From a candidate division Hyd24-12 bacterium UBA6080 (lineage in GTDB: Bacteria; Fermentibacterota; Fermentibacteria; Fermentibacterales; JCC-6): 64,000 nucleotides of DNA. A program made the position numbers and the translations under genes. Location: the NCBI GenBank assembly GCA_002436025.1, contig DIXM01000002.1, forward strand, positions 245,659-309,658, read 5' to 3'. Under the pieces are notes generated by a model, which was not told the DNA's origin, searched no databases, and saw only the letters and a program-made list of their open reading frames with translations. Every line of letters begins with the position of its first letter. The stretch's first letter is position 1. Shown here piece after piece: positions 2,832-31,062 of this stretch.

Positions 2832-3528
2832 TGTCAGCAGAAGGTTCGCCAAGGCCCGGGAGACGGTCGATCGCGAGAGGATCTACTCCCTCGACGAGAC
2901 GATCGCCCTGGTGAAGGGCGCCGCCACAGCAAAGTTCGACGAGACCGTTGAAGTTGCGGTGAACCTGGGCGTGAATCCGAAGCATTCGGATCAGGTCGTC
3001 CGTGGAACCTGCATTCTTCCCTTCGGCACCGGAAGAACGGTCCGTGTACTGGTATTCGCCAGGGGCGAGAAGGCCGAAGAGGCCCGGGAAGCCGGCGCGG
3101 ACAGCATAGGCGATGAGGAAACCGTAGAGAAGATCAAGGGCGGCTGGATGGATTTCGATGTGGTCATCGCCACGCCCGACATGATGAAGGTCCTGGGCGC
3201 GGTGGCCAGAATCCTCGGTCCCCGGGGTCTCATGCCCAACCCGAAAACCGGCACCGTGACAATGGATGTGTCACAGGCGGTCAGGGAGGCGAAAGCCGGC
3301 AAGATCAACTTCAGGGTTGACAAGACCGGTGTGCTTCATGTTCCTGTGGGCAAGGCCAGCTTCGATGAGCCGGCCCTCAGGGAGAACATTGTGGCCTTCA
3401 TGGAGAAGGTGATGCAACTCAAACCCGCCACCGCCAAGGGCAAGTACATCATCAGCATGTCGGTCTCATCCACCATGGGTCCCGGAGTTCGGGTTGATAC
3501 CGCCGATCTCCGGCTGGTTCTCAAGTGA
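2824..3528 (+). CDS. rplA: 50S ribosomal protein L1
   Basis: 234 aa L1-like translation. 8-nt overlap with the end of rplK. Confidence 0.9.
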
Positions 3529-4072: not shown

Positions 4073-4127
4073 GTCGATACCATTAACGCGACCCAAGGGT
4101 CCGATTGCCTAAAACGGAGGAAGAACC

Positions 4128-4508
4128 ATGAGTGACGACAAGAAGGCCGCCATCATCGAGGCCATTTCCAATATGACCGTTCTTGAGCTCGCCGAGCTTG
4201 TCAAGGAGATGGAAGCCAAGTTCGGAGTGTCGGCCGCAGCCCCCGCAGTTGCAGTTGCCGCTGCCGGACCCGCCGCTGCCGTGGAAGTGGAAGAGCAAAC
4301 CGAGTTCGACGTGATCCTCGAGAGCTTCGGCTCGAAGAAGATCGCTGTCATCAAGGTGGTCAGGGAACTCACGAACCTGGGTCTGAAGGAAGCCAAGGAC
4401 CTCGTGGACGGAGCCCCCTCCAAGCTCAAGGAAGCCGCGGAGAAGGCCGAAGCCGAAGAGATGAAGAAGCAGCTTGAGGAAGCCGGCGCAACTGTCATAC
4501 TCAAGTAG
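4128..4508 (+). CDS. rplL: 50S ribosomal protein L7/L12
   Basis: 126 aa with an Ala/Pro hinge and C-terminal [11 protein letters not shown]...KEEAEE. GGAGG RBS. Confidence 0.92.
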
Positions 4509-4529
4509 CAGGTGTATTCTGGTCTTTGC

Positions 4530-4560
4530 GGAAGGGACGGGATCAAATCCCGTCCCTTCC
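4530..4560 (+). terminator. rplL-rpoB intergenic hairpin (attenuator-like, weak U-tract)
   Basis: Perfect 13-bp stem GGAAGGGACGGGA / TCCCGTCCCTTCC with a 5-nt loop. Followed by CCCCGTTTCC...GTTTCGTGTTTCCTTTC. Matches the known partial terminator position between rplL and rpoB. Confidence 0.5.
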
Positions 4561-4610
4561 ATCCCCGTTTCCGGGCGTTTCGTGTTTCCTTTCAGTTGTG
4601 AGGAGCGGCA

Positions 4611-7600: not shown

Positions 7601-8411
7601 CGACAAGATACAGCAGGAGTTCCTTCAGGCCGAGAACAGGATCAGCGTCGGAGACGAGCTCAAACCCGGCGTTATCAAGCTTGTCAAGGTCTACGTGGCC
7701 AAGAGGCGCAAGCTCAGGGTCGGCGACAAGGTCGCGGGCCGACACGGCAACAAGGGCATCGTGAGCATCATAGTCCCCGAGGAGGACATGCCCTACCTGC
7801 CGGACGGCACACCCGTAGACATCTGTCTCAACCCGCTGGGCGTTCCCTCCCGAATGAACGTGGGCCAGATCATGGAAACCAATCTCGGCTGGGCCGCCAA
7901 GACGCTGGGCTTCGATGTGGTGACACCGGTCTTCGACTCGGCGCACAACAGCGTGATAGAGGAAACCCTGGAAGAGGCCGGCCTGCCCCGCGACGGCAAG
8001 ACGGTCCTCTACGACGGCCGCACCGGCGAACCCATGAACGAGAGTGTTACCGTTGGTCTCATGTACGTTATGAAACTCGCCCATCAGGTGGAAGACAAGA
8101 TCCATGCCCGGTCCACAGGTCCGTACGCCATGGTCACCCAGCAGCCACTGGGCGGCAAGGCGCAGAACGGCGGCCAGAGGCTGGGTGAGATGGAGGTCTG
8201 GGCGCTCGAAGCGTACGGGGCGGCCCACTGCCTGCAGGAGATGCTCACTATCAAGTCGGATGACGTCGAGGGCAGGAACAGGGCCTACAGCAGCATCGTA
8301 CAGGGAAAGGCCATTCCCCCCTCCAGCACACCCGAGGCCTTCAGCGTTCTTCTGAACGAGATGAGAAGCCTGGCCCTGGATGTGGAACTGGTTACCGAGG
8401 AGGAGAACTAG
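4611..8411 (+). CDS. rpoB: DNA-directed RNA polymerase subunit beta
   Basis: 1266 aa. GTG start after AGGAG. Conserved beta-subunit blocks (e.g. GEGGLTRERAGFDVRDVHHTHYGRVCPVETPEGPNIGL). Confidence 0.95.
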   Translation: MNKDRPVRNYSRVTPALEVPDLLKVQRDSFENFLQADVPSDERLPQGLHKIFLDTFPIESASKEFSLEYVSFEVSPPKHTVKEALERGVTYCANLNAVMRLVTRDPESKSFKMGVDQKVFLGSLPIMTDSGSFIINGAERVIVSQLHRSPGVFFEEKVQQRNRRVHSARVIPHRGSWLEINLDPNDQIFAIIDRRNKRIPVTMLLRALGLSTDTQILAAFYPVVEKDLEAMLKRQSRSSDFIHRTFAEDIADPATGEVLVRCDEPVETVEKLENLVSRGITKARFLESRSERDNFDGIRKTLAKEESSLGAGVDKNEDSATMWIYEALRGTEAPSLDHARSYLRSMFFDSKRYSLSEVGRYKLNERLNINTSMDRLTLVVEDLVAIVDNLIMLREGTNTADDIDHLGNRRVKTVGELLSQEFSKGLSRMARTIRDKMGHQDKDKLRPQDLVNSRTLSSVINTFFGSSQLSQFMEQTNPLAELTHKRRTSALGEGGLTRERAGFDVRDVHHTHYGRVCPVETPEGPNIGLITTLSVYASINRFGFLETPYRRVIKGKITDEVVYLSADREDRTTIAEADSPVDAKGYLTGPLVRARKAGNFPMVRPDDIEYIDVSPMQLVGLSAALIPFLEHDDANRALMGSNMQRQAVPLLYTQPPVVGTGMEAVAARDSGALVTARRGGMVVEVDSRKIVVRADGDEYDFDRDDVYDLKKFQRSNQDTCINQKPMVSPGQRVEEGAILADGMATSDGRLALGVNALVAFTPWNGYNYEDAVVMSERLVKNDLFTSVHIEEYEVNFRETKLGPEELLRDIPNVGEDRKRNLDENGIIRVGARVRSDDILVGKVSPKGEQDLSPAERLIRAIFGQKAGDVKDTSLRAPNGMDGIVVDVKVYSRRDDTERGRRVLEERIDALREQKLNREQRLCKERDDMLCEVLTGQKAVNLIDSVTGEQYVPSGRKLTTASLRKVNFTDIDYGRQLCEDLKADDRARRILRSTSRELDKIQQEFLQAENRISVGDELKPGVIKLVKVYVAKRRKLRVGDKVAGRHGNKGIVSIIVPEEDMPYLPDGTPVDICLNPLGVPSRMNVGQIMETNLGWAAKTLGFDVVTPVFDSAHNSVIEETLEEAGLPRDGKTVLYDGRTGEPMNESVTVGLMYVMKLAHQVEDKIHARSTGPYAMVTQQPLGGKAQNGGQRLGEMEVWALEAYGAAHCLQEMLTIKSDDVEGRNRAYSSIVQGKAIPPSSTPEAFSVLLNEMRSLALDVELVTEEEN

Positions 8412-8412
8412 A

Positions 8413-11400
8413 ATGCACAGCAATCCCTCTCCAAGAGATGTGAATGCTTTCCCCACCGATTTCAGGGGGATCCGCATAAGCCTCGCCTCTCCGGACACCA
8501 TAAGGAACTGGTCCCACGGCGAGGTCACCAAGGCTGAAACGATAAACTACAGAAGCTACAAGCCCGAACCTGACGGCCTCTTCTGCGAGCGCATATTCGG
8601 GCCTGAAAAGGACTGGGAGTGCGCCTGCGGAAGGTACAAGAGGATCCGCTACCGAGGCGTGAAGTGTGACCGGTGCGGGGTGGAAGTGACCATGTCCAAG
8701 GTGCGGCGCAGCCGCATGGGACACATTGATCTCGCAGTTCCCGTGTGCCACATATGGTACTACAAGAACCGCCAGATCTCAAAGCTCCTGGACATAACCA
8801 ACATCGATCTCGAAAGGGTTCTCTACTACGAATCATACATCGTTGTGGCCAGCGATCATCCCCAGCTCCGGCCCGGCACCGTCCTCGGTGACGAGGAGTA
8901 CTACGCCGCAAAGGAAACCTACGGGAAAGACACCTTCAAGGTGGGCATGGGCGCCGAAGCGATCGCGAACCTTCTGGCCGGGCTCGATCTCGAGGAGCTG
9001 GCCGCCATGCTCCGCACCTCCATCGCCAACGAAACGACCCTTTCCAGGCGTCAGAAGAACGTGAAGAGGCTGAAGGAAGTGGTGGCTTTCACGAACTCCC
9101 GGGCCGAGAACCGCCCGGAGTGGATGATCCTTCGAATACTTCCCGTGCTGCCTCCGGGTCTTCGGCCCCTGGTTCCCCTCGACGGTGGCCGCTTCGCCAG
9201 CAGTGACCTCAACGACCTCTACCGCAGGGTCATCAACAGGAACAACCGCCTGAAGAGGCTTCTTGACCTCCAGGCGCCCGACGTGATCCTTCGCAACGAA
9301 AAGCGGATGCTTCAGGAAGCGGTTGACGCGGTGCTTGACAACTCCAGCCGCCGCAAACCAGTGAAGGGCGCGGGCATGCGCCCGCTCCGAAGCCTCTCCG
9401 ACCTTCTGAAGGGGAAGCGGGGAAGGTTCCGCCAGAACCTTCTGGGCAAAAGGGTGGACTACTCAGGCCGAAGCGTCATCGTGGTCGGCCCCGAACTCAA
9501 GCTTCATCAGTGCGGTCTTCCGAAAACCATGGCCCTCGAGCTTTTCAAGCCCTTCGTGGTTGCCAGGTGGGAGAAGAAGTACGGTTGCGGCGTGAAGATG
9601 GCCCAGAAGAAGGTCGAAGAACGCCCGGAAGAAGTCTGGGCCATACTCGAAAAGGTTATCAGGAACCACCCGGTTCTCATCAACAGAGCTCCCACTCTGC
9701 ACAGGCTGGGAATCCAGGCCTTTGAACCCGTGCTGGTCGAGGGCCTTGCCATCAGGCTTCATCCGCTCTCCTGCGCCGCCTTTAACGCCGACTTCGACGG
9801 TGACCAGATGGCGGTTCACGTTCCCCTTTCCGCCGAGGCCCAGGTCGAGGCCAGAATGCTCATGCTGGGAAGCAGGAACATTCTCAAACCCGCCAGCGGC
9901 GAACCGGTGGTCACGCCCAGCCATGACATGGTCATCGGAGTGTACTACCTGACCAAACCCATGGTCGCCGCCAAGGGCGAAGGGATGGTCTTCTCGGGCA
10001 GGGAAGAGGTCATCGGCGCTCTGGATGCCGGCAAGGTTGACTATCACGCCAAGATAAAGATCAGGGGCGTGAACAGGATCGGCGAAACCGGCAACGACGG
10101 CGAGATGAGAAAACCCACGTACTGGAAGGACTACACGACCCCCGGTCAGGTGGTTTTCAACGGGATAGTTCCCGAAGGCATGGGTTACATAATGGCCAAC
10201 GGCCAGATCCCGCACGAAAAGGTTTTCGGCAAGAAGGGCCTTTCCTCGATGGTCTCCAGGTGCCACCACAACGAAGGCGCCGTGGCCTGCGCCGTATTCC
10301 TCGACAACCTGAAGAGCCTCGGCTTCCACTACAGCACCATCAGCGGGCTTACCGTGGGCATGCGTGACATGATCATCCCCGACATGAAGACCGAGATCGT
10401 CAGCGAGGGCAGGAGGCTCGTGGCCGAGGTCGAGGAGAGAGCCGGGAAGGGCGAACTAACCGAGGCCGAACGGTACAACAGGATCATCGACATATGGAGC
10501 AAGGCCACCGAAGACGTGAAGAAATCCATGATGGATGTCCTCGAGAGGGACAAACACGGTTTCAACCCCATCTTCATGATGGCCCACTCCGGTGCCAGGG
10601 GAAGCGTTGACCAGGTCAGACAGCTCGCAGGCATGAGAGGTCTCATGTCGAAGCCCAAGAAGAAGCTCTCCGGCGAGCTGGGGGAAACCATCGAAACCCC
10701 CATTTTAAGCTCACTGAAGGAAGGCCTCTCGGTCATCGAGTACTCCATCAGTACCCACGGGTCCCGCAAGGGTCTCGCCGACACAGCACTCAAGACCGCC
10801 GATGCGGGTTACCTCACCAGGCGTCTTGTGGATGTCTGCCAGGACGTTGTGATCACCATCGAGGACTGCGGCACGATAAGGGGCAGGAACATCAGCGCCC
10901 TGAAAGAGGGCGAGGAGATACTTGAACCCCTCCGCGACAGGATCGTGGGCAGGGTTACCGCCGAGGACGTCTTCGATCCCATCGGTGACGAGATCATCCT
11001 CGAGGCGGGACGCGAAGTTACGGCCGAGCACGCGCTCAGGATCGAGGAAAAGGGCATCGAGACCGTCAGGATCCGAAGCGTTCTCACCTGCGAGGCTGAA
11101 CACGGCCTTTGCGCCAGGTGCTACGGATGGGACCTCAGCCGAAACCGCATGGTGACAAGGGGAGAAGCGGTGGGAGTCATCGCTGCCCAGTCCATCGGAG
11201 AACCCGGCACCCAGCTCACCCTGCGCACGTTCCACACCGGTGGTGTTGCCGGCCGTGAGGCCAAGGAGACTGAAGTCAGGGCAAGGCGCGCCGGAAAGGT
11301 CAGTTTCCGCAACATCCATATCGTTGAGGGCTCGGACGAATCCGGCAAGGTCAACCGCATAGCCACCAGGAACGGTCAGATCGTTATTCTCGACGAAAGC

Positions 11401-13185
11401 GGCGATGCGGTGTCAACCTACGACATCGTGCCCGGCTCACTGCTCAATGTGACAGAAGACCAGCAGGTGGAGCGGGACGATCTGATCTGCAAGAGCGATC
11501 CGTTCATCATCCCCATCGTGAGTGAACACAACGGGTCGGTCCACTACGTCGACATCGAGGAAGAGATCACCCTCAGGGAGGAGATCGACAGCGAGCAGCG
11601 CAGACAGATGGTGATCGTGGAGGACCGCAGCCGTACTCTTCACCCTCACCTCTTCATCCTTCCGGAGCACATCGTTGTGCTAAGCGGAAGACCCCAGCGG
11701 AGGGACCGGGAACTCCGCACCATGCACGACCTCCTGAAAGAGGCTGATTCCTCCACGGGCCGGATCGTTTTCACCTACCGCGACCTCGGCTCGGTCAGGA
11801 ACACCTCCCTCCTTGAGGACTTCGTAGCTTCCAGGGACGAGAAGATCCCGCATGTAGGCGTTGACTGCAGAAGGGTTCACACCGGCAGTTACGCCGCCTT
11901 CGTTGATGCCATCAACCTCATTGAGCCCCTGGGCAAGAAGAGCGGTGGCGAACTCTGGAAAAACCTCAGGACCGCCATGGACAACCTTGCAGAGGCCTCA
12001 TCCAGGAACAATGAAGAGATGGAGACCCATTTCATCAGCGCCCTCCTCGAGTTCAGCAAAAAGGTTCCCATGGTGCTCTCCGTCGCCGACCTCAACAGGG
12101 GCCACACGGGCACCCGGAAACTGGTGTCGATGCTCTGCGAGTCGATCGATCAGGGCAGGATACTCTTCATCGCCAGTTTCTCCCGCAGGGGTCTTCGAAG
12201 CCACACCGTGGCCCGGGGCCGGCAGCGTACTCAGGACCAGGACCCGGTTGAAGAGTTCATCAAGGACAACGTCCTCGGCGTCTACCCCATCCCCAGCGGG
12301 GCTCACCTGCGCGTGGAGGACGGCGCCCTGATCAAGATGGGCGTTCACCTGGCCAGGATAGAGAGAAGGCTCGGTCAGCAGAGGGACATCACCGGCGGCC
12401 TTCCCCGGGTGGAGGAACTCGTGGAAGCGAGATGCCCTCTGGATGCAGCGGCGATCGCGGAGATAAGCGGTATGATCGGTCTCAGTTCGATCAAGGCCGC
12501 CATGCGCACCGTGACGATCCGGGGCGACCAGGGTCAGGAATCCTCCCTCAAGATCCAGGCTTCGAAGCACATCAGGGTGCGCGAGGCGGATCATGTCGAG
12601 GCAGGCGACAAACTCACCGAGGGCCCGCTCGATCCCCACGACATCCTGAGGGTGAGGGGAACCGAGGCGGTGGAGGATTACCTCCTCAACGAGATTCAGG
12701 AAGTCTACAGGCTTCAGGGAGTGAAGATCAACGACAAGCATGTGGGCATCGTCGTGCGCCAGATGCTTTCGAAGGCCAAGATCGAGGACCCGGGCGACAC
12801 CAGGTTCCTCGAAGGCTCCCAGGTGGACAGACTCGATCTCAACCGTCACAACATGGAAGTGATGAGGCAGGGCAAGAGGCCTGCCACGAGTGACGTTCTG
12901 CTGCTGGGCATCACCAAGGCATCCCTCGCAACCGACAGTTTCCTTTCGGCGGCATCATTCCAGGAGACGAACACAGTCCTCGCTGATGCAGCCGTTCAGG
13001 CCAAGGTCGATCCTCTGCTGGGTCTGAAGGAAAACGTCATTGTCGGTCACCTCATTCCAGCGGGAACCGGTTTGCCTCTGTACAGGAACGTGAGGCTTTT
13101 CCTGCCCGACGGCGGCGCACTGCCGGAGCCGGTCAGGCTTGAGCCTGAAGAAGATACGCTTGACAATTTCCATTTCGATGCGTAA
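8413..13185 (+). CDS. rpoC: DNA-directed RNA polymerase subunit beta' (long form, about 1590 aa)
   Basis: ATG at 8413, 2 nt after the rpoB stop. Zinc-binding CxC...CxxC N-terminus. NADFDGD catalytic motif. The ORF-track start at 8380 overlaps rpoB and was rejected. Confidence 0.95.
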   Translation: MHSNPSPRDVNAFPTDFRGIRISLASPDTIRNWSHGEVTKAETINYRSYKPEPDGLFCERIFGPEKDWECACGRYKRIRYRGVKCDRCGVEVTMSKVRRSRMGHIDLAVPVCHIWYYKNRQISKLLDITNIDLERVLYYESYIVVASDHPQLRPGTVLGDEEYYAAKETYGKDTFKVGMGAEAIANLLAGLDLEELAAMLRTSIANETTLSRRQKNVKRLKEVVAFTNSRAENRPEWMILRILPVLPPGLRPLVPLDGGRFASSDLNDLYRRVINRNNRLKRLLDLQAPDVILRNEKRMLQEAVDAVLDNSSRRKPVKGAGMRPLRSLSDLLKGKRGRFRQNLLGKRVDYSGRSVIVVGPELKLHQCGLPKTMALELFKPFVVARWEKKYGCGVKMAQKKVEERPEEVWAILEKVIRNHPVLINRAPTLHRLGIQAFEPVLVEGLAIRLHPLSCAAFNADFDGDQMAVHVPLSAEAQVEARMLMLGSRNILKPASGEPVVTPSHDMVIGVYYLTKPMVAAKGEGMVFSGREEVIGALDAGKVDYHAKIKIRGVNRIGETGNDGEMRKPTYWKDYTTPGQVVFNGIVPEGMGYIMANGQIPHEKVFGKKGLSSMVSRCHHNEGAVACAVFLDNLKSLGFHYSTISGLTVGMRDMIIPDMKTEIVSEGRRLVAEVEERAGKGELTEAERYNRIIDIWSKATEDVKKSMMDVLERDKHGFNPIFMMAHSGARGSVDQVRQLAGMRGLMSKPKKKLSGELGETIETPILSSLKEGLSVIEYSISTHGSRKGLADTALKTADAGYLTRRLVDVCQDVVITIEDCGTIRGRNISALKEGEEILEPLRDRIVGRVTAEDVFDPIGDEIILEAGREVTAEHALRIEEKGIETVRIRSVLTCEAEHGLCARCYGWDLSRNRMVTRGEAVGVIAAQSIGEPGTQLTLRTFHTGGVAGREAKETEVRARRAGKVSFRNIHIVEGSDESGKVNRIATRNGQIVILDESGDAVSTYDIVPGSLLNVTEDQQVERDDLICKSDPFIIPIVSEHNGSVHYVDIEEEITLREEIDSEQRRQMVIVEDRSRTLHPHLFILPEHIVVLSGRPQRRDRELRTMHDLLKEADSSTGRIVFTYRDLGSVRNTSLLEDFVASRDEKIPHVGVDCRRVHTGSYAAFVDAINLIEPLGKKSGGELWKNLRTAMDNLAEASSRNNEEMETHFISALLEFSKKVPMVLSVADLNRGHTGTRKLVSMLCESIDQGRILFIASFSRRGLRSHTVARGRQRTQDQDPVEEFIKDNVLGVYPIPSGAHLRVEDGALIKMGVHLARIERRLGQQRDITGGLPRVEELVEARCPLDAAAIAEISGMIGLSSIKAAMRTVTIRGDQGQESSLKIQASKHIRVREADHVEAGDKLTEGPLDPHDILRVRGTEAVEDYLLNEIQEVYRLQGVKINDKHVGIVVRQMLSKAKIEDPGDTRFLEGSQVDRLDLNRHNMEVMRQGKRPATSDVLLLGITKASLATDSFLSAASFQETNTVLADAAVQAKVDPLLGLKENVIVGHLIPAGTGLPLYRNVRLFLPDGGALPEPVRLEPEEDTLDNFHFDA

Positions 13186-18772: not shown

Positions 18773-19174
18773 CTACAGCCTCCATACCTCCTCGCCGGTC
18801 TGGACCAGGCCCATCCCGTTTTCCTCCAGGGCTGAGCGCATCCATTCCAGTGACTTGTCGAAGTTATCAAGCAGGACGGTGCTTCCGTTATCGGAGCTGA
18901 CCTGCAGCAACCTGCTGTTCCGGGCGTAGGTTCCCCTGGAAACGGTTACTGTGCCGAAGGGAAGGCTGACAGGTTTTCCCCTTATCAGAAGCTTTAGAAG
19001 GATACCCAACTGGGTGTAGAGCAGCGCCATCTTTCCCAGGTCGTGAAAGACGAACCTTCTGTTGGTCAGAACGCAACGGCAGTCAACCGGGAACTTTATC
19101 TTCCCGCCCTGCAGCGTGTAACGGCGTCTGTCGGCGAAAACCTGCTCATCGGGGTCGGGCGTGAACTTCGGCAT
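18773..19174 (-). CDS. Hypothetical protein (possible bacterial PH-like fold)
   Basis: 133 aa, no signal peptide. Co-directional and tightly spaced between the OM-barrel gene and the oxidoreductase gene. Confidence 0.4.
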   Translation of the reverse strand: MPKFTPDPDEQVFADRRRYTLQGGKIKFPVDCRCVLTNRRFVFHDLGKMALLYTQLGILLKLLIRGKPVSLPFGTVTVSRGTYARNSRLLQVSSDNGSTVLLDNFDKSLEWMRSALEENGMGLVQTGEEVWRL

Positions 19175-19189
19175 GAAACTCCTTTTTTC

Positions 19190-19921
19190 TCAGAACATCC
19201 TTCTGATGGTAAAGCCCAGGGCGAGGTCGTTCGTGGCCGCCCCGTTCAACTGCCCCCGCGGGCCGATGCCGGTACTGTTCCCAAGGATGACGACGAACTG
19301 GTGACCCCATGTGGTGCGCCTGACCCCGAAGCAGAACGAGTCTTCGGGAAGGATCGATTGATCTTCGTCATCCCGGTCGATGACCGGGAAGTATTCTCCG
19401 ATAAGGGCCGTATTCTCCCCAAGACCAAGGGAAAGACCGAACCCGGGGCCGTGCCTTTCGGTCCTGCCGTCATAGGCATAGTTCACCGTGGGGATGATCC
19501 GCCCGTTCGCGAAGGGGGCCGAGAACGCGCCAAGCAGCGTCAGCCCGCCCTCACGGTCCTGGTTGGCCGCAGGTTTCACCGAGGAATACCCCATGGAAAA
19601 GGCAGCCTCGAAGCTGTCGACAAAGGTGCTCCAGTACCCGCCCAGCGTGTATTCCTTCCCGGAGCGCACGTGCCCGGCCCTGATCTCGAGACCGTTCACC
19701 GGGAACCATCCCAGTTCTGCACCCACGTTGGCACCGATGTCCATTCCGAAGAATGTCTCGATCGGTTCGTCCTTAAGTGCTGCCCCGTAGAACCTGTGGT
19801 TCAGCCTGAGTTCCAGGCTTCCCTCACCGGTTGCCGGCGCGGGGGTCTCGATGTTGAGCATCCCAGGGCCGTAGGCGGCCAAAGGACAGGCGATCGCCAG
19901 AAGCATCGCGGCAACTCTCAT
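19190..19921 (-). CDS. Putative outer-membrane beta-barrel protein
   Basis: Signal peptide MRVAAMLLAIACPLAAYG. Alternating amphipathic strands rich in aromatic and Gly residues. C-terminal ...GFTIRRMF ending in Phe. Confidence 0.55.
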   Translation of the reverse strand: MRVAAMLLAIACPLAAYGPGMLNIETPAPATGEGSLELRLNHRFYGAALKDEPIETFFGMDIGANVGAELGWFPVNGLEIRAGHVRSGKEYTLGGYWSTFVDSFEAAFSMGYSSVKPAANQDREGGLTLLGAFSAPFANGRIIPTVNYAYDGRTERHGPGFGLSLGLGENTALIGEYFPVIDRDDEDQSILPEDSFCFGVRRTTWGHQFVVILGNSTGIGPRGQLNGAATNDLALGFTIRRMF

Positions 19922-19930
19922 GAGAACCTC

Positions 19931-20461
19931 CTAAAGGAGTTCGAGTGAAACTGCACGAACGAACTGGTGCGCGCTTGTGAAATCATCTCCCCCACTTGGA
20001 CCGTAAGCCAGCAGGATCGCATAGGTTTCCCCCTGGGTGAGAACGGCATCGTACAGGTCGCCGGAAGACATGGGGATGGAGAAGTCGATCTCGGTCTTGT
20101 TTCCGGTCTCGCCCGCCTCTATGAGCGTGACGTTGCTGTTGCCTCCCAATACAATGTCGGCCTCGTGGGTCGTGACGCCCGTACCGAAATCGTCACGTAT
20201 GAACCCCGTTCCGTCTTCGACGTATCCGATGATGAAATTCGCATCCTTCATCATCACGGAGGGGTCGAAACCAACCGCAACCCAGCCCGTCGTTGGCGCG
20301 GAGAGTTTCACGTGAAGGGTCGCCCCGTCGTTCTCCACCCGCCACTGAAACACGACATCGTCAGTGGTGTAGTCGTTCCATCCCTCGGTCCCGGAAGGGC
20401 CCGTGGTGTCGCCGCAGCTTCCCATAAGAAGCAGGGCTGTAATGACAAAAGCTTTTTTCAT
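19931..20461 (-). CDS. DOMON-domain lipoprotein (paralog 1)
   Basis: MKKAFVITALLLMGSCG lipobox. TGWVAVGFDPSVMM.DANFIIGYV...IRDDFG...H..D..LGG core shared with the divergent paralog. Confidence 0.7.
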   Translation of the reverse strand: MKKAFVITALLLMGSCGDTTGPSGTEGWNDYTTDDVVFQWRVENDGATLHVKLSAPTTGWVAVGFDPSVMMKDANFIIGYVEDGTGFIRDDFGTGVTTHEADIVLGGNSNVTLIEAGETGNKTEIDFSIPMSSGDLYDAVLTQGETYAILLAYGPSGGDDFTSAHQFVRAVSLELL

Positions 20462-20545
20462 TCCGCCTCCGCCCTTTTCCATCGTTTTCCTTACTTGACA
20501 GTTGTATTATTATACTTGCTGGTGAAAAAGAAAGGAAGGCTGACA

Positions 20546-21094
20546 ATGGGTAAGCTGTTGATCATCATGGCCGTCCTCACAGGCACCACATTCGCATGGC
20601 AGGAGATCGAGGTTTCGGGATTCCTCCTCAGATGGGAAACCCGGGCGGGAGACAACCTTGCTGTGGAGCTCACCGGTCCCACGACGGGCTGGGTTGCGGT
20701 GGGTTTCGACCCCTCCGTGATGATGCTGGACGCCAACATCATCATCGGCTACGTTTCGGGCGGCAACACCTTCATCAGGGACGACTTTGGATGGCAGACC
20801 ACATCCCACAGGGCCGACACCCTCCTGGGGGGAACCGAAGACTTTATCATCGACGGCGGCTCCGAGTCCGGGGGGGAAACCCAGATCAGGTTCACCATCC
20901 CGCTTGACTCCGGTGACCAGTACGACAAGCCCCTTGTTCCCGGCAGCTCCTACCCGATAATACTTGCCAGGGGACCCAACGGCGCAGACGACTTCTCGAC
21001 CCAGCACCAGTTCATAACCACTGCCACCATCGACATCCTTGCCTTCTCCCTCCAGGGGTCCACCTGGGGTAGGGCGAAGATGGGTCTTGACTGA
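20546..21094 (+). CDS. DOMON-domain protein (paralog 2, signal peptide)
   Basis: AAAGGAAGG RBS. MGKLLIIMAVLTGTTFA signal. The same TGWVAVGFDPSVMMLDANIIIGYV...IRDDFG core as paralog 1. Confidence 0.7.
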   Translation: MGKLLIIMAVLTGTTFAWQEIEVSGFLLRWETRAGDNLAVELTGPTTGWVAVGFDPSVMMLDANIIIGYVSGGNTFIRDDFGWQTTSHRADTLLGGTEDFIIDGGSESGGETQIRFTIPLDSGDQYDKPLVPGSSYPIILARGPNGADDFSTQHQFITTATIDILAFSLQGSTWGRAKMGLD

Positions 21095-21692
21095 GAGCAC
21101 GACCGACACTCTTCGGATACTCGCCTTTGCGGGCAGCACCAGAGAGGGATCTTTCAATCGCGCACTGATGGAACAGGCTGCCGGGTTCGCACGCGAGGCC
21201 GGCGCTGCTGTCACCCTGGTCGATCTCGACGACTTCCCCATGCCGATAGTGAACCAGGACCTTGAAACCGCGCACGGCATCCCTGCGACCGCCCTGGCCT
21301 TCAAACGGCTTCTTTCAGAGAACGACGGCTTTCTCATCGCGTCGCCTGAATACAACGGCTTCGTTACACCGCTGCTCAAGAACTGCCTGGATTGGGCTTC
21401 CCGTTCGGAAACGCCCGACGAGAAGCCCCTCTCGGCGTTCAGGGGGAAGACGGCGGCCATCCTGTCGGCATCACCCGGAGGCCTTGGGGGGCTCCGCAGC
21501 CTGTCCGTCCTCAGAACGCTTCTGACGAACCTCGGTGTGATCGTGCTTCCGGGGCAGCATGCGGTCTCCGGGGCGGACGGGGCGTTCGATGATGAAGGAA
21601 AACTGAAGGATTCCGGGAACGTCGCATCGGTGAAAAGGGTCGTCCGGGAACTTGTCAGGGTCACTTCCGCTCTGAGAGCAACGGTCCACTGA
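21087..21692 (+). CDS. NAD(P)H-dependent FMN reductase family protein
   Basis: TTG start overlapping the DOMON stop. LRILAFAGSTREGSFNRAL...LIASPEYNGFVTPLLKNCLDW is typical of the SsuE/ArsH-like FMN reductase family. Confidence 0.75.
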   Translation: MTESTTDTLRILAFAGSTREGSFNRALMEQAAGFAREAGAAVTLVDLDDFPMPIVNQDLETAHGIPATALAFKRLLSENDGFLIASPEYNGFVTPLLKNCLDWASRSETPDEKPLSAFRGKTAAILSASPGGLGGLRSLSVLRTLLTNLGVIVLPGQHAVSGADGAFDDEGKLKDSGNVASVKRVVRELVRVTSALRATVH

Positions 21693-22387
21693 TGCTGCTT
21701 CAGGCGCTTCCGCCGGCGCTCCCGCCCGGGAGTTCAGAATCATCCGACGCACTCCAGGCCATCGCCCTGCGAGCCGTGCTCCGATCCCCGGAGTGGGGGC
21801 AGGTCAAAGAGTACTGGAACCTTCTGAACCGCGTAACAGGGAAAGGTGGCCAGTTCCAGCCCGCCGGTGACCTGGACATGGCAAAGGCCGACAGCATCAT
21901 AGCCGATGTTCGCAGGTGCATGGCCGGGCTCAACCCCGACGGCGGTACGGGGGGCATGTGGAGCGCCCTTGAGATGACGGGTCTTCTCGTTGAGACCCGG
22001 GCACTGAGGCTCAGCCGCATCAACCCCGCTTTCATGACAAGGATGATGCCCTCATGGTCGACCACCTTCGGTGAAGACCTGCTCTACAGCTTCGACTCAA
22101 GGCTCAGGGAGCTCGAGAGGCTCAGGAGCGGGGGTGAACTCACCGAAGAGGTCTTCCTGTCTGCGTCGGATACGCTTGGCAGACAGTTCGAAACGTGGGC
22201 GCTTCTGCAGTTGGCCGATGACCGGTACGGCTTCGGGCCCCCCGGTATTCAGGAAAGGCTTCTGGAGGTCGAACTCCTCTACGAAACCGTTGCGGAGGAA
22301 TTCGGCGAGGAGAGGGTTCTGGCCTTCAGGGAGATGCGCCCATACCTCGAGCCCCTTCTCGAAAGTCTTCTTGAGGAGTTTTACTGA
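21692..22387 (+). CDS. Hypothetical protein (231 aa, no recognisable domain)
   Basis: TGATG coupled to the FMN reductase gene. Ends in a CTGA junction with the radical SAM gene. Confidence 0.5.
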   Translation: MLLQALPPALPPGSSESSDALQAIALRAVLRSPEWGQVKEYWNLLNRVTGKGGQFQPAGDLDMAKADSIIADVRRCMAGLNPDGGTGGMWSALEMTGLLVETRALRLSRINPAFMTRMMPSWSTTFGEDLLYSFDSRLRELERLRSGGELTEEVFLSASDTLGRQFETWALLQLADDRYGFGPPGIQERLLEVELLYETVAEEFGEERVLAFREMRPYLEPLLESLLEEFY

Positions 22388-23298
22388 ACGTCTTCTGGTT
22401 CGCGTTCGAGGTCACTCCCGTCTGCAACCTTTCCTGCGGCTACTGTTACAACTTCTGGCGCGACCCCGGGCAGCAGGTTCCACGGGAGCTTGAGATTACA
22501 GAGATCCGGGGGATTCTGCACAGCCTTCGGACCGATGCCCCGGGATCAGGCGTGACCCTTACGGGAGGCGAACCCCTGCTCAGACCCGATCTTCCCGGGA
22601 TCGCAGCTGCAGCAGCGGAACAGGGCTTCACAGTGGCCGTCGCCACCAACGGGACACTTCTGACATCATCCATTGCCCGCGAACTGCGGGATTCGGGAGT
22701 AAGGCACTTCGACATCGGCATCGAAACCAGAGTCGCGGACGTTTCAGAAGGGATAGCAGGTGCCTGTGCGACCGGGGCCAGCGTCACCCTTTCACTTTGC
22801 CTCACCTCGAAAAACTCCGGTTCGGCACCGGAAGTGGTGAGGTTTGCGGCGGCTCTGGGGGCCGATGCCGTGTGTCTGAACAGGTTCGTTCCAACGGGCA
22901 GGCCGACCGATGCCGACCACCTGCCCTCGTCAACCGGGATCATTGATGCCCTGCGGGATGCCGGAAGGGTGGGCGCGGAGCTCTCCCTGCCTGTCTACGC
23001 GGGCATCCCGCTGGAGCCCTGTGTGTTCCCCAATGTCAATGAATTTGGTATAATCAACACCGCATGTCACTGTGGAGAGGGAAAGTGGGCCATAGGGCCC
23101 GATGGCTGGCTGAGAACCTGTGAGCAGAGCCCTGTTCTTCTCGGAAGCCTGCTTACAGAAAGGTTTTCTGCACTGAGGGAGTTGACCGTCGTGAAAGGGT
23201 TCCGTGAAGCCACACCTTTCCGTAAATGCCATGGTTGTGCCGATCTTCCACGTTGCGGCGGAGGGTGCAGGTTTCTTGACGGATCGGAGTGCAGTTGA
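22384..23298 (+). CDS. Radical SAM / SPASM-domain protein (no canonical start codon before the Cys motif)
   Basis: Frame open from 22375. It encodes LNVFWFAFEVTPVCNLSCGYCYNFW (CxxxCxxC), then GGEPLL, then C-terminal CHCGEGKW...CHGCADLPRCGGGCR (SPASM/twitch-like). The first canonical start (GTG 22552) lies after the cluster motif. A CTG at 22384 overlaps the upstream TGA. Confidence 0.6.
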   Translation: MNVFWFAFEVTPVCNLSCGYCYNFWRDPGQQVPRELEITEIRGILHSLRTDAPGSGVTLTGGEPLLRPDLPGIAAAAAEQGFTVAVATNGTLLTSSIARELRDSGVRHFDIGIETRVADVSEGIAGACATGASVTLSLCLTSKNSGSAPEVVRFAAALGADAVCLNRFVPTGRPTDADHLPSSTGIIDALRDAGRVGAELSLPVYAGIPLEPCVFPNVNEFGIINTACHCGEGKWAIGPDGWLRTCEQSPVLLGSLLTERFSALRELTVVKGFREATPFRKCHGCADLPRCGGGCRFLDGSECS

Positions 23299-23789
23299 AC
23301 TACTTCGCGTACGGATCGAACATGTCCCTGGCAAGGCTGTCCGCCAGGATCCCGTCGGTGCGGCGAACCTGTGTGGGCTCTCTCGCCGGTTATAAACTGG
23401 TGTTTCACAAGGCCGGTGAAAGCGACGGCTCGGCCAAATGCGACGCATTCTTCACGGGCGACCCGTCCCACGAGCTCCTGGGCGTGGTGTACCGGATCGA
23501 TCCCGACGAGAAACACAGGCTGGACATCATCGAAGGCGTCGGTTACGGCTACGAGAACCGTTGCGTCAAGATCAGGCTCGGGGACGGCAGCGTCGTTTCG
23601 GCCTGGGTTTACTGCGCCACCGTCATCAATCCTTCGCTGCTGCCTTTCGACTGGTACAGGGAGCATGTGGTGAGGGGAGCCCTTGAAAACGGTCTTCCCG
23701 ACCATTACGTCTCCCGCATAAGGGCCGTCGAGGCAAAGAGCGACCCCGACCGTGAACGGGCCTCACGCGAGCTTTCCATCTACGCCTGA
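23289..23789 (+). CDS. Gamma-glutamylcyclotransferase (GGCT/AIG2-like) family protein
   Basis: N-terminus QLNYFAYGSNM is the GGCT signature. GTG start overlapping the radical SAM gene end. Confidence 0.75.
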   Translation: MQLNYFAYGSNMSLARLSARIPSVRRTCVGSLAGYKLVFHKAGESDGSAKCDAFFTGDPSHELLGVVYRIDPDEKHRLDIIEGVGYGYENRCVKIRLGDGSVVSAWVYCATVINPSLLPFDWYREHVVRGALENGLPDHYVSRIRAVEAKSDPDRERASRELSIYA

Positions 23790-26311: not shown

Positions 26312-29227
26312 ATGTCGTATCTTCCTCCCAGATTTGGTGTATTCACTCTTAGCGTTCTAATCCTGCTCACTCAGTCCCTCATCGCAGCGGAACCCGGGGA
26401 GAACACAATTCCCATCATAGGCATGCGGGCTTCCAACAACGCAGACTTTTCAGGGATAGGCATTCGTCTTCTCTGCGAGCTGTCTTGGAAGTGTTTCGAC
26501 GGAGTGGAGGTGGAGGGACTTGTGGTGGATGGTTCCGCGGGAAACCCGGATTGGCAAGACAATCGTGATTTCATAGAACTCTGCGGTGATGCGGGCATGC
26601 TTCTGGTCCTTGCTCCCTGGGAGATAAGCCAGTTCCATAACTTCTGGAACGTAAACACCGCGTACTGGTTCCGCTGGGAGGACTATTCACTCAATTCCGG
26701 GAAGTGTTTCGGGCAGCTTTCCGAAACCCTTGGAGCACCGATTGACTCCATGACGGCTGCGCAGATGGCAGATACCACTGAAATCAGATCAGTTGCATAC
26801 GCGAACAACCAATTGGCAATCACCTTGAACCCTGCGACTTATCCCGCCCTTTGGTTCTACAACGTATATGACGAGGCGCCTGCGCGTCAGCGTGCCAGAA
26901 TGATAGAAGGTTCCACGACATGGGACGATTGGATCCCCAACCTCTACACCCAGGACACACTGAGCAATGGTGAACCAACCCTGACGGAGATAGAACCCGC
27001 GGGCATCTACTCCTGGCAGAAGTGGTTTGCGGAAAACCACGTGACAACTCCCATCCCCCTTACCATCAACTTCTCCCTGCTGCATACCATTCAAGCCAAT
27101 GAGTACACCGGGATAACCTGGGATCTCAACTACGGCACCATGCACCAGCAGGCCAATTCTGTCAGAGCGTTGTGCGAAGCCCTGTACCAGGGGCCTCCCG
27201 GGACGGGAACGCCCGTTGACCCGGTGAGCAACTCCCCTGAGTTCATCTGTTTCGACTACTACCCGTTTCGGTATGTTCACATTGATTCCCTGGGAGCAAC
27301 CCTCTGCGACGACGACTGGCTCTTCCTTGTTGACCATTGCGAACAGGGGATGGACTCGACGGTGTTCGCGGCAAGGGAGAGCGATGTCCCGGTGTTCTTC
27401 TACCCTCAGGCCTTCGGGGTCTCCGGAGGTCCGCTGCTGCGTGATTCCGCAGGAGATCTTGAGTACCTTTCCTACACGTACCGCACTCCTGCTCCTCAGG
27501 AGTTCCGCATGCTCTGCAATCTGGCCCTGCTGCACCAGGCAAAGGGGCTTTTTCCCTACTCCCTGGCCGGCTACATCTCTGACCCCAATGCCCCTGAAGA
27601 TCAGAACAACTTTATATGCAACTCGCTTCTCGACCTTCACGGCATACCGTTCGATGCTCCGTACGAAGACTGGGTGTACACCGGAAGGTGGCCGGATACT
27701 GGTGACTGGGAAGGCGGGTACGAGTACGCCGACCCCGGGGAACTTCCCCCCTTCAGCGCGGGCTTCGACCCTCTCTACGAGGTGTCGGCAGCACCGGTTC
27801 CAGTGCAGGATGACCCGAAGAACACCGAGAGGTTTCTGACATGGCTCTTCGAGCCCTACTCGAGGCTTTACGACAGCGTTCAGGTTCCCCTGGCCGAGGC
27901 TGCAGTGATTGCACCCGAGATGTCGGATCTCTGGTGGTGGGAGGGTTCGTGGGACGCTGCAAGTATCTCTGTGGACGACCCTGAGATCTACGACCACTAC
28001 GTTCCACCTGTGATAAAGGTGTTCCAGGGGCCGGACAGCAGCCACGTGTATCTTTACTACGTGAACCGCTACCTGAGGAACGAAGAGACGGATTACACCG
28101 TCAGGCTCACTGTCTCTCAGAGCCCCGGGTACGTATCCTTAACTGTACTTGACCACAGCAGGCGCTTTTTGATACCGGCTCCTTCAGGGGGCGGGGGCAA
28201 CGATGTTTACGTCGCCTTCGACGACACGCTGGAAGCGGGTGAGGGCAGGCTCGTTGAGTTCGTGGACACAAATGCTCTTCCCGCGGACATCAGGGTGACG
28301 TCACCCGACGTTTATGTGTACAGGCAGGGCGCCGTGAACAGAAGCGACCGGTTGTGCTGCACCGCCGGTGAAACCATCACCTTCGGAGCCGTGTACTACA
28401 ACATGGGGACTGCGGCAACCGGAGATATCAGCGTGGTCTTCGAAAAGGTTGGTACACCGTACATACTGGGCACCGACACGATACGTTTCGGGGGGCTTTC
28501 AGGGTACTACAACCCCGACAGCGCCTCCGCGAGCATTCAGTGGGAGACCGATGTGAACGACATTGGTGTTCACAGGATCGGGATAAGCGCGGGAGCCGTT
28601 TCCGGCGAGAACACATCCGACAACAGTGTTACGGTCACGGTTCTTGTTGAGCCTTTGGACTACGCCACCGAAGTTCCGGGGAACGCGTGGGACATGACCG
28701 AGGCTGTGAGCAATCCGCCGGACTGGTTCACCAATGACATTGTCTCGATTGCGGCCGGCTGGATTGATTCATGCTGGACCGATTCCGTCAGCGGAATGTT
28801 CGAGGGCGCAATTGAGTCCCGCACTTACGGTGCCTGGACAGGGTTCAAGGGGGATATCAGCCTTAACACCGGCGGTGGATCAATCAACGCAGACCGGTAC
28901 ACATTGCTGAGCCTTGCCGGTGTCTCCCTGAACCCCAATGTATCTACAACGGAGTATGGCTGCGGCATGTTCCTGTTATGGAAGGATTCAACGGAGACCG
29001 AGCGTCAGTTGGAGCTTCACGGGAGCAACGGCTTTGATCGGTGGCTTGGGAACGGCAGGGAGATGTGGCGCGAGTTCGGACCTCTTGACCTCTCCGATGT
29101 TCCTTGGTGGGGCGGCGAGATAAGCGATCTGAGGATAAGGTTCCAGATGGATCCGCCCGGAAGTCTCCCGGGTAGCTCCCTTGGCATCAGGATCGGCTGG
29201 GTCAGGCTGGAAGAAGGTGCTTTGTGA
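26312..29227 (+). CDS. Large secreted hypothetical protein (971 aa) with CARDB-like Ig-fold segment
   Basis: N-terminal signal peptide. No catalytic motif recognised. A segment around residues 640-760 resembles CARDB/Ig-like repeats. Confidence 0.65.
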   Translation: MSYLPPRFGVFTLSVLILLTQSLIAAEPGENTIPIIGMRASNNADFSGIGIRLLCELSWKCFDGVEVEGLVVDGSAGNPDWQDNRDFIELCGDAGMLLVLAPWEISQFHNFWNVNTAYWFRWEDYSLNSGKCFGQLSETLGAPIDSMTAAQMADTTEIRSVAYANNQLAITLNPATYPALWFYNVYDEAPARQRARMIEGSTTWDDWIPNLYTQDTLSNGEPTLTEIEPAGIYSWQKWFAENHVTTPIPLTINFSLLHTIQANEYTGITWDLNYGTMHQQANSVRALCEALYQGPPGTGTPVDPVSNSPEFICFDYYPFRYVHIDSLGATLCDDDWLFLVDHCEQGMDSTVFAARESDVPVFFYPQAFGVSGGPLLRDSAGDLEYLSYTYRTPAPQEFRMLCNLALLHQAKGLFPYSLAGYISDPNAPEDQNNFICNSLLDLHGIPFDAPYEDWVYTGRWPDTGDWEGGYEYADPGELPPFSAGFDPLYEVSAAPVPVQDDPKNTERFLTWLFEPYSRLYDSVQVPLAEAAVIAPEMSDLWWWEGSWDAASISVDDPEIYDHYVPPVIKVFQGPDSSHVYLYYVNRYLRNEETDYTVRLTVSQSPGYVSLTVLDHSRRFLIPAPSGGGGNDVYVAFDDTLEAGEGRLVEFVDTNALPADIRVTSPDVYVYRQGAVNRSDRLCCTAGETITFGAVYYNMGTAATGDISVVFEKVGTPYILGTDTIRFGGLSGYYNPDSASASIQWETDVNDIGVHRIGISAGAVSGENTSDNSVTVTVLVEPLDYATEVPGNAWDMTEAVSNPPDWFTNDIVSIAAGWIDSCWTDSVSGMFEGAIESRTYGAWTGFKGDISLNTGGGSINADRYTLLSLAGVSLNPNVSTTEYGCGMFLLWKDSTETERQLELHGSNGFDRWLGNGREMWREFGPLDLSDVPWWGGEISDLRIRFQMDPPGSLPGSSLGIRIGWVRLEEGAL

Positions 29228-31062
29228 AAGCTCTGATTCTGCTGCCCGTTGTCTTGACAACCTCTTTGGCGGGCTTAAGCGGGCAGGACGACTGGTCCGA
29301 CGGGCCTGGAGTTCCCGGGCCGGTGAACTTCTTCTTTCAATCCTTCGACAGCCACCAGAACATGGGATACGAGGACACGCCGGGGGAGTTGTTCCTTCAT
29401 CTTCGGGGCGAGAAGCATCAGGTCACGAACTACCTTGAGTACTCGGTTCCCGGGATGGTGGCAGACATGAACGGCGACGGTCACCTTGACGTGGTGTGCG
29501 GGTCCAACGGATACAGCAAGAGGAAGGTTTACTGGTTCGAGAACGACGGTTCAGGGGGTGGCTGGGAGCGCCACGATGTGAGTGGAACTGGCGAAGTGAC
29601 CTATCCATGGTCCGTTTGCGCCGCGGATGTCGACGGAGATGGCGATATGGACGTTATCTGCGGGGATAACGACAACAAGATTTTGCTCTGGATCAACACT
29701 GACGGATCGGGGCTGACCTGGGAAACCATCATTCTTGTTGACAACCTTTTCTATAGCCCAACGTTTGTCACGAATTCCGACATTGATGGCGACAGTTATC
29801 CTGATGTTGTTACACTAACAGGTGGTGGTTCCAACGAGTTGATCCTATGGTTTGAAAACCCCATACCCGATCGGCCCACAATCGATGGATGGACACAACA
29901 TCTGGTAGGACCGAAAGCAAACTGCAATCAGGTCTTTCCAGCCGACATCAACGGCGATGGTCGGATGGACGTGGTCAGCGCTGCTGGAAGTTCCAACAAG
30001 CAGGTGTCGTGGTGGGAGAACGAGAACGGTACGGGCGACAACTGGACTGAGCGCACCATTGTCAACAACATCAATCACGCAAAGACTGTCCATGCTTCAG
30101 ACATGGACGGTGACGGCGACATGGATGTGATTGCTGCAGGGTCTTATGACTTGTACTGGTTTGAGAACGACGACGGACTGGGAACTTCTTGGACAGAGCA
30201 TCAACTTCCTGATCCTTTTGTTCTGTGCAAGGCCGCTGCAGGAGTTGACATTTTTGGAAACGGCAGTCCAGTGATTCTCTCTGCTCATGGTTCCAGTGGC
30301 ACGCCTATTCGCTTCGTCCTCTGGGAGCGGATGGACGAGGGGGGTCTGACCTGGAGAAGGCACATACTGGAGAAGAGTTACCTGTACCATGGTCTCTCCG
30401 TTGGGGATATCGATGGGGACGGTACACTTGATGTGGTTGCCTTCGAGGATGGCAGCCGGGTTTTCTGGTTCAGCAAGTTTGGCTACCCATCCGAAGGAAC
30501 ACTCACCTCATCCATTCTGGACGTGAACAACTATCCCCACTGGGATGAGATACAGTGGCAGGACAGCGTTCCTGCGGGTTCTTCCGTACGGTTTCGTGTG
30601 CGTAGTTCCAACGATCCCGGGGACATGGGTGAGTGGTCTGGCTACATTGAGGAGTCCGGGAGCCTTGAGGGCTTTGCGGACAGCACCCACCGTTATTTCC
30701 AGTACCGTGTTCACATGGAGCCATCGGGCCATCTGGTGACACCCACGCTCTATCAGGTGCTGATCTACTGGCAGTGGCTTGGGGTGGAGGGGGCTGAAGA
30801 AGAAACATGCCTTCACCCGGTGACCCCCAACCCATGTACAGGCCCTGTGGAGATACGGTTCAGTCTTGCGGAGCCGGGTCCCATTGCGCTTCAGGTGTTC
30901 GACCTGTACGGCCGTTTGGTCGCCTTGCCGGTGGACGGCGAGGTGTCGGGCGGTGAACACTCGGTCCAGCTTGCTTCCCTGCATCCGGGAGCCTACTTCG
31001 TCAGGATGACCACGGGAGAAGAAGTGCTGCGGGAGCGCTTTGTTCTGGTGGGTGATCAGTAA
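29224..31062 (+). CDS. FG-GAP/VCBS-repeat beta-propeller protein with T9SS-type C-terminal sorting domain
   Basis: GTGA overlap with the upstream gene. Signal peptide. Repeated DxDGDGxxDV calcium-binding FG-GAP motifs (DMNGDGHLDV, DVDGDGDMDV, DINGDGRMDV, DMDGDGDMDV, DIDGDGTLDV). The C-terminal ~80 aa (NPCTGPVEIRFSLAEPGPIALQVFDLYGRLV...GAYFVRM) resembles the Por/T9SS CTD. Confidence 0.8.
   Translation: MKALILLPVVLTTSLAGLSGQDDWSDGPGVPGPVNFFFQSFDSHQNMGYEDTPGELFLHLRGEKHQVTNYLEYSVPGMVADMNGDGHLDVVCGSNGYSKRKVYWFENDGSGGGWERHDVSGTGEVTYPWSVCAADVDGDGDMDVICGDNDNKILLWINTDGSGLTWETIILVDNLFYSPTFVTNSDIDGDSYPDVVTLTGGGSNELILWFENPIPDRPTIDGWTQHLVGPKANCNQVFPADINGDGRMDVVSAAGSSNKQVSWWENENGTGDNWTERTIVNNINHAKTVHASDMDGDGDMDVIAAGSYDLYWFENDDGLGTSWTEHQLPDPFVLCKAAAGVDIFGNGSPVILSAHGSSGTPIRFVLWERMDEGGLTWRRHILEKSYLYHGLSVGDIDGDGTLDVVAFEDGSRVFWFSKFGYPSEGTLTSSILDVNNYPHWDEIQWQDSVPAGSSVRFRVRSSNDPGDMGEWSGYIEESGSLEGFADSTHRYFQYRVHMEPSGHLVTPTLYQVLIYWQWLGVEGAEEETCLHPVTPNPCTGPVEIRFSLAEPGPIALQVFDLYGRLVALPVDGEVSGGEHSVQLASLHPGAYFVRMTTGEEVLRERFVLVGDQ

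Follow-up and report, generated by a model that had tools for sequence, protein, structure and literature searches.

A radical SAM gene of the candidate division Hyd24-12 bacterium UBA6080 (Fermentibacterota) has no canonical start codon ahead of its CxxxCxxC cluster motif, and comparison with its relatives suggests that the gene is very probably intact and separate from its upstream neighbor, with translation starting at a CUG codon (22384-86) that overlaps the upstream stop codon. The gene lies in a 64,000 bp stretch of contig DIXM01000002.1 (assembly GCA_002436025.1, contig positions 245,659 to 309,658), referred to here as the window, and coordinates given without a locus name are those of the window. 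The candidate phylum is common in anaerobic digesters.

The junction and the CTG codon

According to the first-pass annotation, the radical SAM frame opens at 22375, has its earliest canonical start (GTG 22552) past the cluster motif, and contains a CTG at 22384-22386 that overlaps the TGA (22385-22387) of an upstream open reading frame (ORF) of 231 amino acids (aa). Reading of the sequence, the ORF listing, and translation of both frames reproduce the frame opening and the position of the GTG, and the overlap is likewise recovered from the sequence. The features of the junction are as follows.

21692-22387, + strand: upstream ORF, 231 aa, ending ...LLESLLEEFY (GAG GAG TTT TAC TGA), from the ORF listing and its translation
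22372-22374, + strand: TGA closing the radical SAM frame on its 5' side; the frame opens at 22375
22373-22378, + strand: Shine-Dalgarno-like (SD-like) GAGGAG, 5 nt 5' of the CTG and within the last codons (E-E) of the 231-aa ORF
22379-22382, + strand: TTTT run, proposed slip site; not conserved, and outside any slippery heptamer
22384-22386, + strand: CTG, the putative radical SAM initiation codon, 13 codons before the first cysteine of the cluster motif (Cys1)
22385-22387, + strand: TGA stop of the 231-aa ORF, overlapped by the CTG (4-nt overlap, CTGA)
22384-23298, + strand: radical SAM/SPASM gene as re-annotated here, 304 codons plus TGA
22423-22446, + strand: CxxxCxxC cluster motif (C14, C18, and C21 counted from the CTG), 5' of every canonical start
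22552-22554, + strand: GTG, the earliest canonical in-frame start in the ORF listing, 43 codons past Cys1, giving a 248-aa ORF

After the closing TGA the open frame reads GGA GTT TTA CTG AAC GTC TTC TGG TTC GCG TTC GAG GTC ACT CCC GTC TGC, translated from 22375 as G-V-L-L-N-V-F-W-F-A-F-E-V-T-P-V-C-N-L-S-C-G-Y-C, and before Cys1 it contains a single near-cognate codon, differing from ATG by one base, which is CTG 22384. The cluster cysteines are encoded at 22423-25 (Cys1, TGC), 22435-37, and 22444-46. The CTGA at 22384-87 has the geometry of a coupled pair, i.e. a same-strand stop/start overlap of 4 or 1 nt, and the GAGGAG at 22373-22378, which is absent from the first-pass description, is a ribosome-binding signal at functional spacing.

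Species-representative genomes and contigs with homologues of either gene were compared, and the codon at the N-terminus was located relative to Cys1 by script; WIN denotes the window, and L090 is the one useful locus obtained when metagenomes were scanned with the protein of the window. An NCBI-annotated metagenome-assembled genome (MAG) of the Fermentibacteraceae encodes the closest homologue, P0001, at 84% identity. Its N-terminus MNGFWFAFEVTPRCNLSC (MNGFWFAFEV) aligns to the window CTG codon, and its annotated start in the DNA is itself a CTG, in the context cttGAGGAGttttaCTGAac (GAGGAGTTTTACTGA), matching the window. A CTG is present 13 codons before Cys1 in WIN, L001, L094, L095, L096, L098, L099, L090, L100/101, L102, L012, L016, L021, L025, L047, L075, and L103, 12 codons before it in L104, and 17 codons before it in L020, for a total of ~19 species-level Fermentibacteria lineages reaching down to ~40% protein identity. 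The earlier proposal of a CTG start giving M-N-V-F-W-F... is thus strongly supported, both by the aligned codon of P0001 and by this recurrence.

The surroundings of the codon are also shared. A CTGA at whose TGA the upstream gene stops is found in 15 lineages; L021 and L103 have an 8-nt overlap, the upstream gene being two codons longer (CTGACTAG, CTGATTAG), and L025 and L013 have a CTGA that is not a working stop/start overlap. There is no ATG, GTG, or TTG in the open frame before Cys1 in 11 lineages (WIN, L001, L094, L095, L096, L098, L090, L102, L016, L021, and L075), such that the conserved N-terminal domain is incompatible with canonical starts there, and a near-cognate codon stands at the position where the orthologues start. 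Orthologues in out-group phyla are stand-alone proteins, all with an ATG 11-16 codons before Cys1, indicating that the position of the N-terminus is a property of the family. The first-pass annotation had also considered that homologues might share a canonical codon lost from the window by an error; this is not what is found, because the non-canonical codon is the conserved state.

Protein P0002 (59% identity, MKGSWFAFEV) has a TTG at the aligned codon, within TAG TTG TTG AAA, and its upstream gene is in the same frame and ends at the TAG. In a neighbour-joining tree the TTG lineage (L002/L011) and the two candidates for an ATC start (L010 and L013) are nested inside the CTG clade, and CTG is therefore likely ancestral there; the CTG arrangement is likely ancestral to a large clade of Fermentibacteria. 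The two ATC candidates, L013 (~2960-3000) and L010 (~2955-3000), lack both a canonical start and an in-frame CTG ahead of the conserved WFAFE segment. L010 reads TAG-GGAGGC-TGCGCC-ATC, with a possible ATC start and a GGAGG 7 nt upstream of it, and in L013 the CTG of the CTGA is one base out of frame and next to a CCC run, reflecting either an assembly indel or an ATC start. For NCBI protein P0004 (MTPRC...), the annotated start seems to be a CTG just 4 codons before Cys1, and this protein is probably mis-started.

Of the 17 tabulated CTG lineages, 15 have an AGGAG, GGAGG, GAGG, GGAG, or AAGG motif that precedes the CTG by 5-7 nt. GGAGG-type motifs are also located 5' of other, ordinary ATG genes in the related locus L001, and these organisms therefore appear to use SD pairing. 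L012 and L047 additionally have a GTG or TTG 10 codons before Cys1, and in both the GGAGG is 7 nt from the CTG and ~16 nt from the -10 codon, a spacing that fits the CTG and not the -10 codon. In L025, the CTG has AAGGAGG 6 nt upstream and no overlapping upstream gene.

The CUG would presumably be read as formylmethionine (fMet) by the initiator tRNA, having been placed in the P site either by ribosomes finishing the upstream ORF at its UGA or by 30S subunits held at the SD-like sequence. Synthesis of the enzyme would then be translationally coupled, depending on translation of the upstream gene, and would probably be low relative to the upstream partner. Coupled genes most often overlap by -4 or -1, and genes for subunits of heteromeric complexes are enriched in such overlaps (PMC10666635). 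The junction shares with ATGA-type termination-reinitiation overlaps the NUGA geometry, a same-strand operon context, and an SD inside the upstream coding region, but differs in that the overlapped start is CUG rather than AUG, GUG, or UUG, and that coupling, like any complex of the two proteins, is putative. A CUG start predicts the N-terminal tryptic peptide (f)M-NVFWFAFEVTPVCNLSCGYCYNFWR; a fusion of the two ORFs would predict a junction peptide ...PLLESLLEEFLLNVFWF....

Selection or tolerance of the probable CUG start

Several observations weigh against this use of the CUG. Initiation at CUG is very poor or undetectable both in E. coli (10.1101/063800) and in chloroplast reporters (PMC9845219), the E. 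coli values for CUG, AUA, AUC, and AUU being ~1-2% of that for AUG (bioRxiv 10.1101/063800), and CUG initiation complexes are less stable than those with AUG, GUG, and UUG (PMC11497404). The genomes compared are all uncultured MAGs, and gene callers used an upstream in-frame ATG or GTG in L025, L099, L100, L103, and L104. Conserved Glu/Gly codons for the C-terminus of the upstream protein (L-x-E-E, M-E-A) coincide with the SD-like motif and confound it, and L099 and L102 have at best a weak motif. Folding of the local RNA gives no significant structure (minimum free energy z = -1.28) and so no support for occlusion of the SD as a basis for coupling; folds computed for each lineage share no structure, although in many of them upstream Leu codons pair with the SD. 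Finally, C is kept over T at the first base of the codon only marginally beyond the baseline of 77% C described below.

This last point bears on whether the codon has any adaptive role. It is quite possible that the start is the same CUG but merely tolerated: tight coupling together with the SD would make it matter little which base comes first, and a GC-biased xxC codon before the TGA would keep the C. C accounts for 77% of C/T at comparable third positions in the genes of the window, the nested lineage L002/L011 has drifted to TTG and others to ATG or TTG, and our own binomial calculation for an excess of C (at most one T in 17 lineages), which ignores phylogeny and takes 77% as the baseline, gives p ~0.07. 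The C of the CTG is the third base of the last codon of the upstream gene, which is variously TAC, CAC, CGC, AAC, ATC, or GCC (Y, H, R, N, I, or A), and a T would be synonymous in every one of these and would create a canonical TTG. However, this third base stays unchanged through five or more changes of the amino acid; among eight close lineages an invariant third base is seen in 5 of the 177 columns (2.8%) with three or more amino acids, and third positions overall are invariant in 8-13%. The CTG moreover persists in L025, where no upstream gene overlaps it, and is kept in L021 and L103, where its C is no longer an upstream third-position base. The synonymous C-to-T change would give a ~10-fold stronger start by E. 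coli measurements (10.1101/063800), yet was fixed only once. In the deeper comparisons, the CUG start persisted while synonymous sites neared or reached saturation. The persistence of CTG across lineages is established; with C in only marginal excess over the 77% baseline, selection for a weak start is plausible but unproven.

We regard as doubtful, if conceivable, that the CUG (or AUC in a sub-lineage) is selectively maintained across the Fermentibacteria as an expression-limiting or IF3-sensitive device, which might hold a potentially harmful maturase at a small fixed ratio to its helical partner, possibly its substrate. A broader variant would have the phylum discriminate less strictly against CUG. 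A crude scan across the window for genes whose open frame extends far ahead of their first canonical start, together with an unexplained gap, returned this gene only, and 9 of the 11 called genes of L001 start with ATG, so that this small sample gives no hint that CTG is used genome-wide.

Both near-cognate starts and 4-nt overlaps have been described before, and it is the depth of the CUG conservation that is unusual. The known near-cognate starts (the AUU of infC and rare annotated CUGs) share with this gene a near-cognate codon at an N-terminus defined by experiment or by comparison, an SD before it, and conservation among orthologues. The AUU start of infC is tied to a demonstrated IF3 autoregulatory loop; in contrast, the radical SAM gene has no known regulator. 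Non-canonical starts are usually dismissed as errors. The two non-canonical codons of the radical SAM family, CUG and AUC, both belong to the class initiating at 1-2% of AUG in E. coli (10.1101/063800). Across 69 model genomes, CUG starts have been reported for just 20 ORFs (0.024%; PMC9845219). Our literature search turned up general work on CUG and near-cognate initiation, but nothing on this gene family and no description of a CUG start in bacteria that is conserved throughout a clade at the level of a family or phylum. If actively selected, the codon would be the first CUG start with such deep conservation to be documented in bacteria. Because the CUG has persisted over ~19 lineages, the gene also offers a clean natural test of how near-cognate initiation acts with an SD and a stop/start overlap to set the stoichiometry of an enzyme to its partner.

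Fusion, frameshift and truncation as alternatives

The first-pass annotation offered as an alternative that a T4-to-T5 slip fuses the two ORFs. The geometry permits this, in that the radical SAM frame is -1 with respect to the upstream frame and a T run is present at 22379-82, and one additional T (or a -1 shift) does join the frames to give a protein of ~535 aa. Such a product could reflect a one-base indel (T4 for T5, as an error or a polymorphism) or a programmed -1 frameshift, but the fusion is not supported by the homologues and we consider it very improbable. A search of 5.8 billion clusters with the 535-aa fusion returned 197 radical SAM homologues; among the matches listed (120) the lengths are 299-659 aa with no more than 67% query coverage, and the close orthologues (299-353 aa) cover the radical SAM half only. 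The upstream family includes no fusion to radical SAM among 14 clusters or 52 profile representatives, and the out-group orthologues, as noted above, are ATG-initiated and stand alone. These lengths and coverages indicate that the two genes are separate wherever they are found, and alignment of homologues, proposed earlier as the means of telling fused from separate genes, thus shows separate ones throughout (~300 aa for the enzyme, ~194-403 aa for full-length members of the upstream family).

The junction itself argues similarly. The TTTT run is present only in WIN, L001, and L094, with other lineages reading GGGCTTCA, GGACTTCA, GGGTTTCG, GGGAAT, GGAAA, etc., and an X XXY YYZ slippery heptamer is present in no lineage; the zero frame is GAG GAG TTT TAC TGA in the window and GAG GGG CTT CAC, GAC GGA CTT CAC, GCT GGA AAC, etc. 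in its relatives. Nor is the frame relationship constant, as the two genes of L002/L011 are in the same frame with a TAG between them, those of L010 and L013 differ, and those of L021 and L103 have the 8-nt overlaps. Neither of the two hallmarks of programmed -1 frameshifting is thus present, the first being the heptamer and the second a conserved fusion product or a constant frame relationship. The junction, including T4, is identical in two independent assemblies of the window species (L008, Logan SRR5323161; L009, JGI 3300002498; among 8 contigs with an identical upstream protein), and it is therefore not an assembly artefact of the window. With no fused homologue, an unconserved T run, no heptamer, varying frames, and an unremarkable fold, both the indel and the frameshift explanations are rejected. 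The junction shares with programmed -1 frameshifting of the dnaX and IS-element type only the frame relationship, a downstream -1 ORF overlapping the end of the upstream one, but is without a heptamer, a conserved stimulatory structure, or a conserved fusion product, and its frame relationship varies.

That the gene is decaying, or truly starts at GTG 22552 to give a 248-aa protein without the CxxxCxxC, is hardly credible: automatic calls of 217-273 aa in L008, L009, and L094-L102 (248 aa in L008, L009, L094, L095, and L099) are in agreement with it, but codons 2-56 (the 55 codons from the CTG to GTG 22552) are under purifying selection, with a ratio of non-synonymous to synonymous substitution rates (dN/dS) of 0.24-0.52 at dS 0.5-1.6, comparable to the 0.16-0.21 of the rest of the gene; T11, C14, C18, C21, Y22, and N23, invariant across 17 proteins, lie 5' of the GTG; the earliest canonical start past Cys1 shifts between +5 and +43 codons from lineage to lineage and is therefore not a conserved start; and each of the eight close lineages has an intact frame of precisely 304 codons when counted from the CTG.

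With the gene taken as starting at the CTG, the family is mis-annotated systematically in public protein collections, with N-termini that err towards both too short and too long. In JGI, ENA, and Logan assemblies, Prodigal-type calls are either truncations of 217-273 aa, seen in every related metagenome checked, or extensions into the upstream ORF. The truncated products lose the catalytic cluster motif and some also lose the Pfam match, e.g. in L100-L102, where the call for the radical SAM gene is a fragment of 217-219 aa for which no Pfam match is recorded. Only one NCBI record (P0001) has the CTG start. In L103 (143-1042), L104 (2001-2984), and L025 (2782-3774), the called upstream ATGs add 15-80 poorly conserved residues and the calls overlap the upstream gene by ~50 nt; in each of the three a CTG and an SD-like motif are located at the usual start of the family.

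The radical SAM/SPASM enzyme and its operon

Further features of the enzyme and of the adjoining junctions are listed here.

23065-23268, + strand: SPASM-type C-terminal cysteine region, with C228, C230, and C246 and a CX2CX5CX3C at C282-C295
21690-21694, + strand: TGATG junction between the FMN reductase gene and the 231-aa gene (1-nt overlap)
23295-23789, + strand: AIG2/GGACT-like gene with a TTG start and a TTGA overlap (23295-23298) with the radical SAM stop; also called in L001 and L008

The radical SAM product matches PF04055 (E=2.2e-20, 73.9 bits against a cut-off of 29.5) and has the CxxxCxxC of the superfamily in its N-terminal loop, with cysteines that are invariant in alignment A1, as well as a GGEP motif. 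The auxiliary-cluster motif of the SPASM subgroup is present as C282-HG-C285-ADLPR-C291-GGG-C295 (residues counted from the CTG), and the auxiliary-cluster cysteines, including this CX2CX5CX3C, are likewise invariant in A1; PF13186 does not reach E<=0.01 for the window protein and is recorded for many of the homologues. Orthologues are 299-327 aa long. The best NCBIfam similarities are to AhbD, NirJ2, and GeoRSP, and none of the named equivalogs (AhbD TIGR04545, NirJ2 TIGR04055, GeoRSP TIGR04303, PqqE TIGR02109, and others) reaches its NCBIfam cut-off. The top score, for AhbD, is 79.1 bits where 500 would be required, equivalog cut-offs being 400-650 bits, and the enzyme therefore belongs to no named subfamily. 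It shares with the AhbD/NirJ-like and PqqE-like SPASM maturases the CxxxCxxC near the N-terminus, the GGEP, the C-terminal CX2CX5CX3C, and PF04055, but differs from them in falling far below their cut-offs and in its conserved neighbors, which include an uncharacterised helical protein.

This helical protein is the product of the 231-aa ORF. It has no Pfam or NCBIfam match, its AF2 model is all helices (a helical bundle, pLDDT 72), and a Foldseek comparison with the PDB gave no significant fold match (none with E<0.3). Its homologues form 14 clusters of 231-240 aa, and a profile of the family searched against 1.84 billion representatives returned 52 representatives of 84-403 aa, the full-length members being ~194-403 aa; two long outliers in the profile search are repetitive low-complexity-like matches. 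Genes for the helical-protein family are present in tandem before the radical SAM gene in two relatives, with three paralogues in L075 (681-2773) and two in L047 (1496-2794) found by tblastn, an arrangement that recalls SPASM maturases with several substrates or precursors.

The plus-strand genes are, in order, those for a DOMON protein, an FMN reductase, the 231-aa protein, the radical SAM enzyme, an AIG2/GGACT-like protein, and EF-G, and the minus-strand neighbors are a HI0933-like flavoprotein, a 133-aa ORF, DUF5777, and a DOMON protein. The order is kept in relatives, which their source names place in Candidatus Fermentibacteraceae, Sabulitectum, and Aegiribacteria. To judge from its TGATG, CTGA, and TTGA junctions, the whole plus-strand block looks translationally coupled, and the DOMON, FMN reductase, helical protein, radical SAM/SPASM, and GGACT genes together flag an uncharacterised conserved operon. 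In the L100-L102 lineage (3717-4686, ~50% identity), the AIG2/GGACT-like gene is absent and EF-G is directly 3' of the radical SAM gene.

Two mechanically listed plus-strand ORFs of the window (19043-19948 and 19967-21094) are probably not real genes. At this location relatives have minus-strand genes for DUF5777 (window 19190-19921) and a DOMON protein (19931-20482) and a plus-strand gene for a 182-aa DOMON protein, and the 375-aa ORF is therefore an over-extension. Elsewhere in the window, a plus-strand ORF of 971 aa with no Pfam match (26312-29227) overlaps by 4 nt the next plus-strand gene (29224-31062), whose 612-aa product has FG-GAP repeats and, at its C-terminus, a Por/T9SS sorting domain. 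The rpoB and rpoC genes are located at 4611-13185, and the only tRNA gene of the window, for tRNA-Trp, is at 1354-1429.

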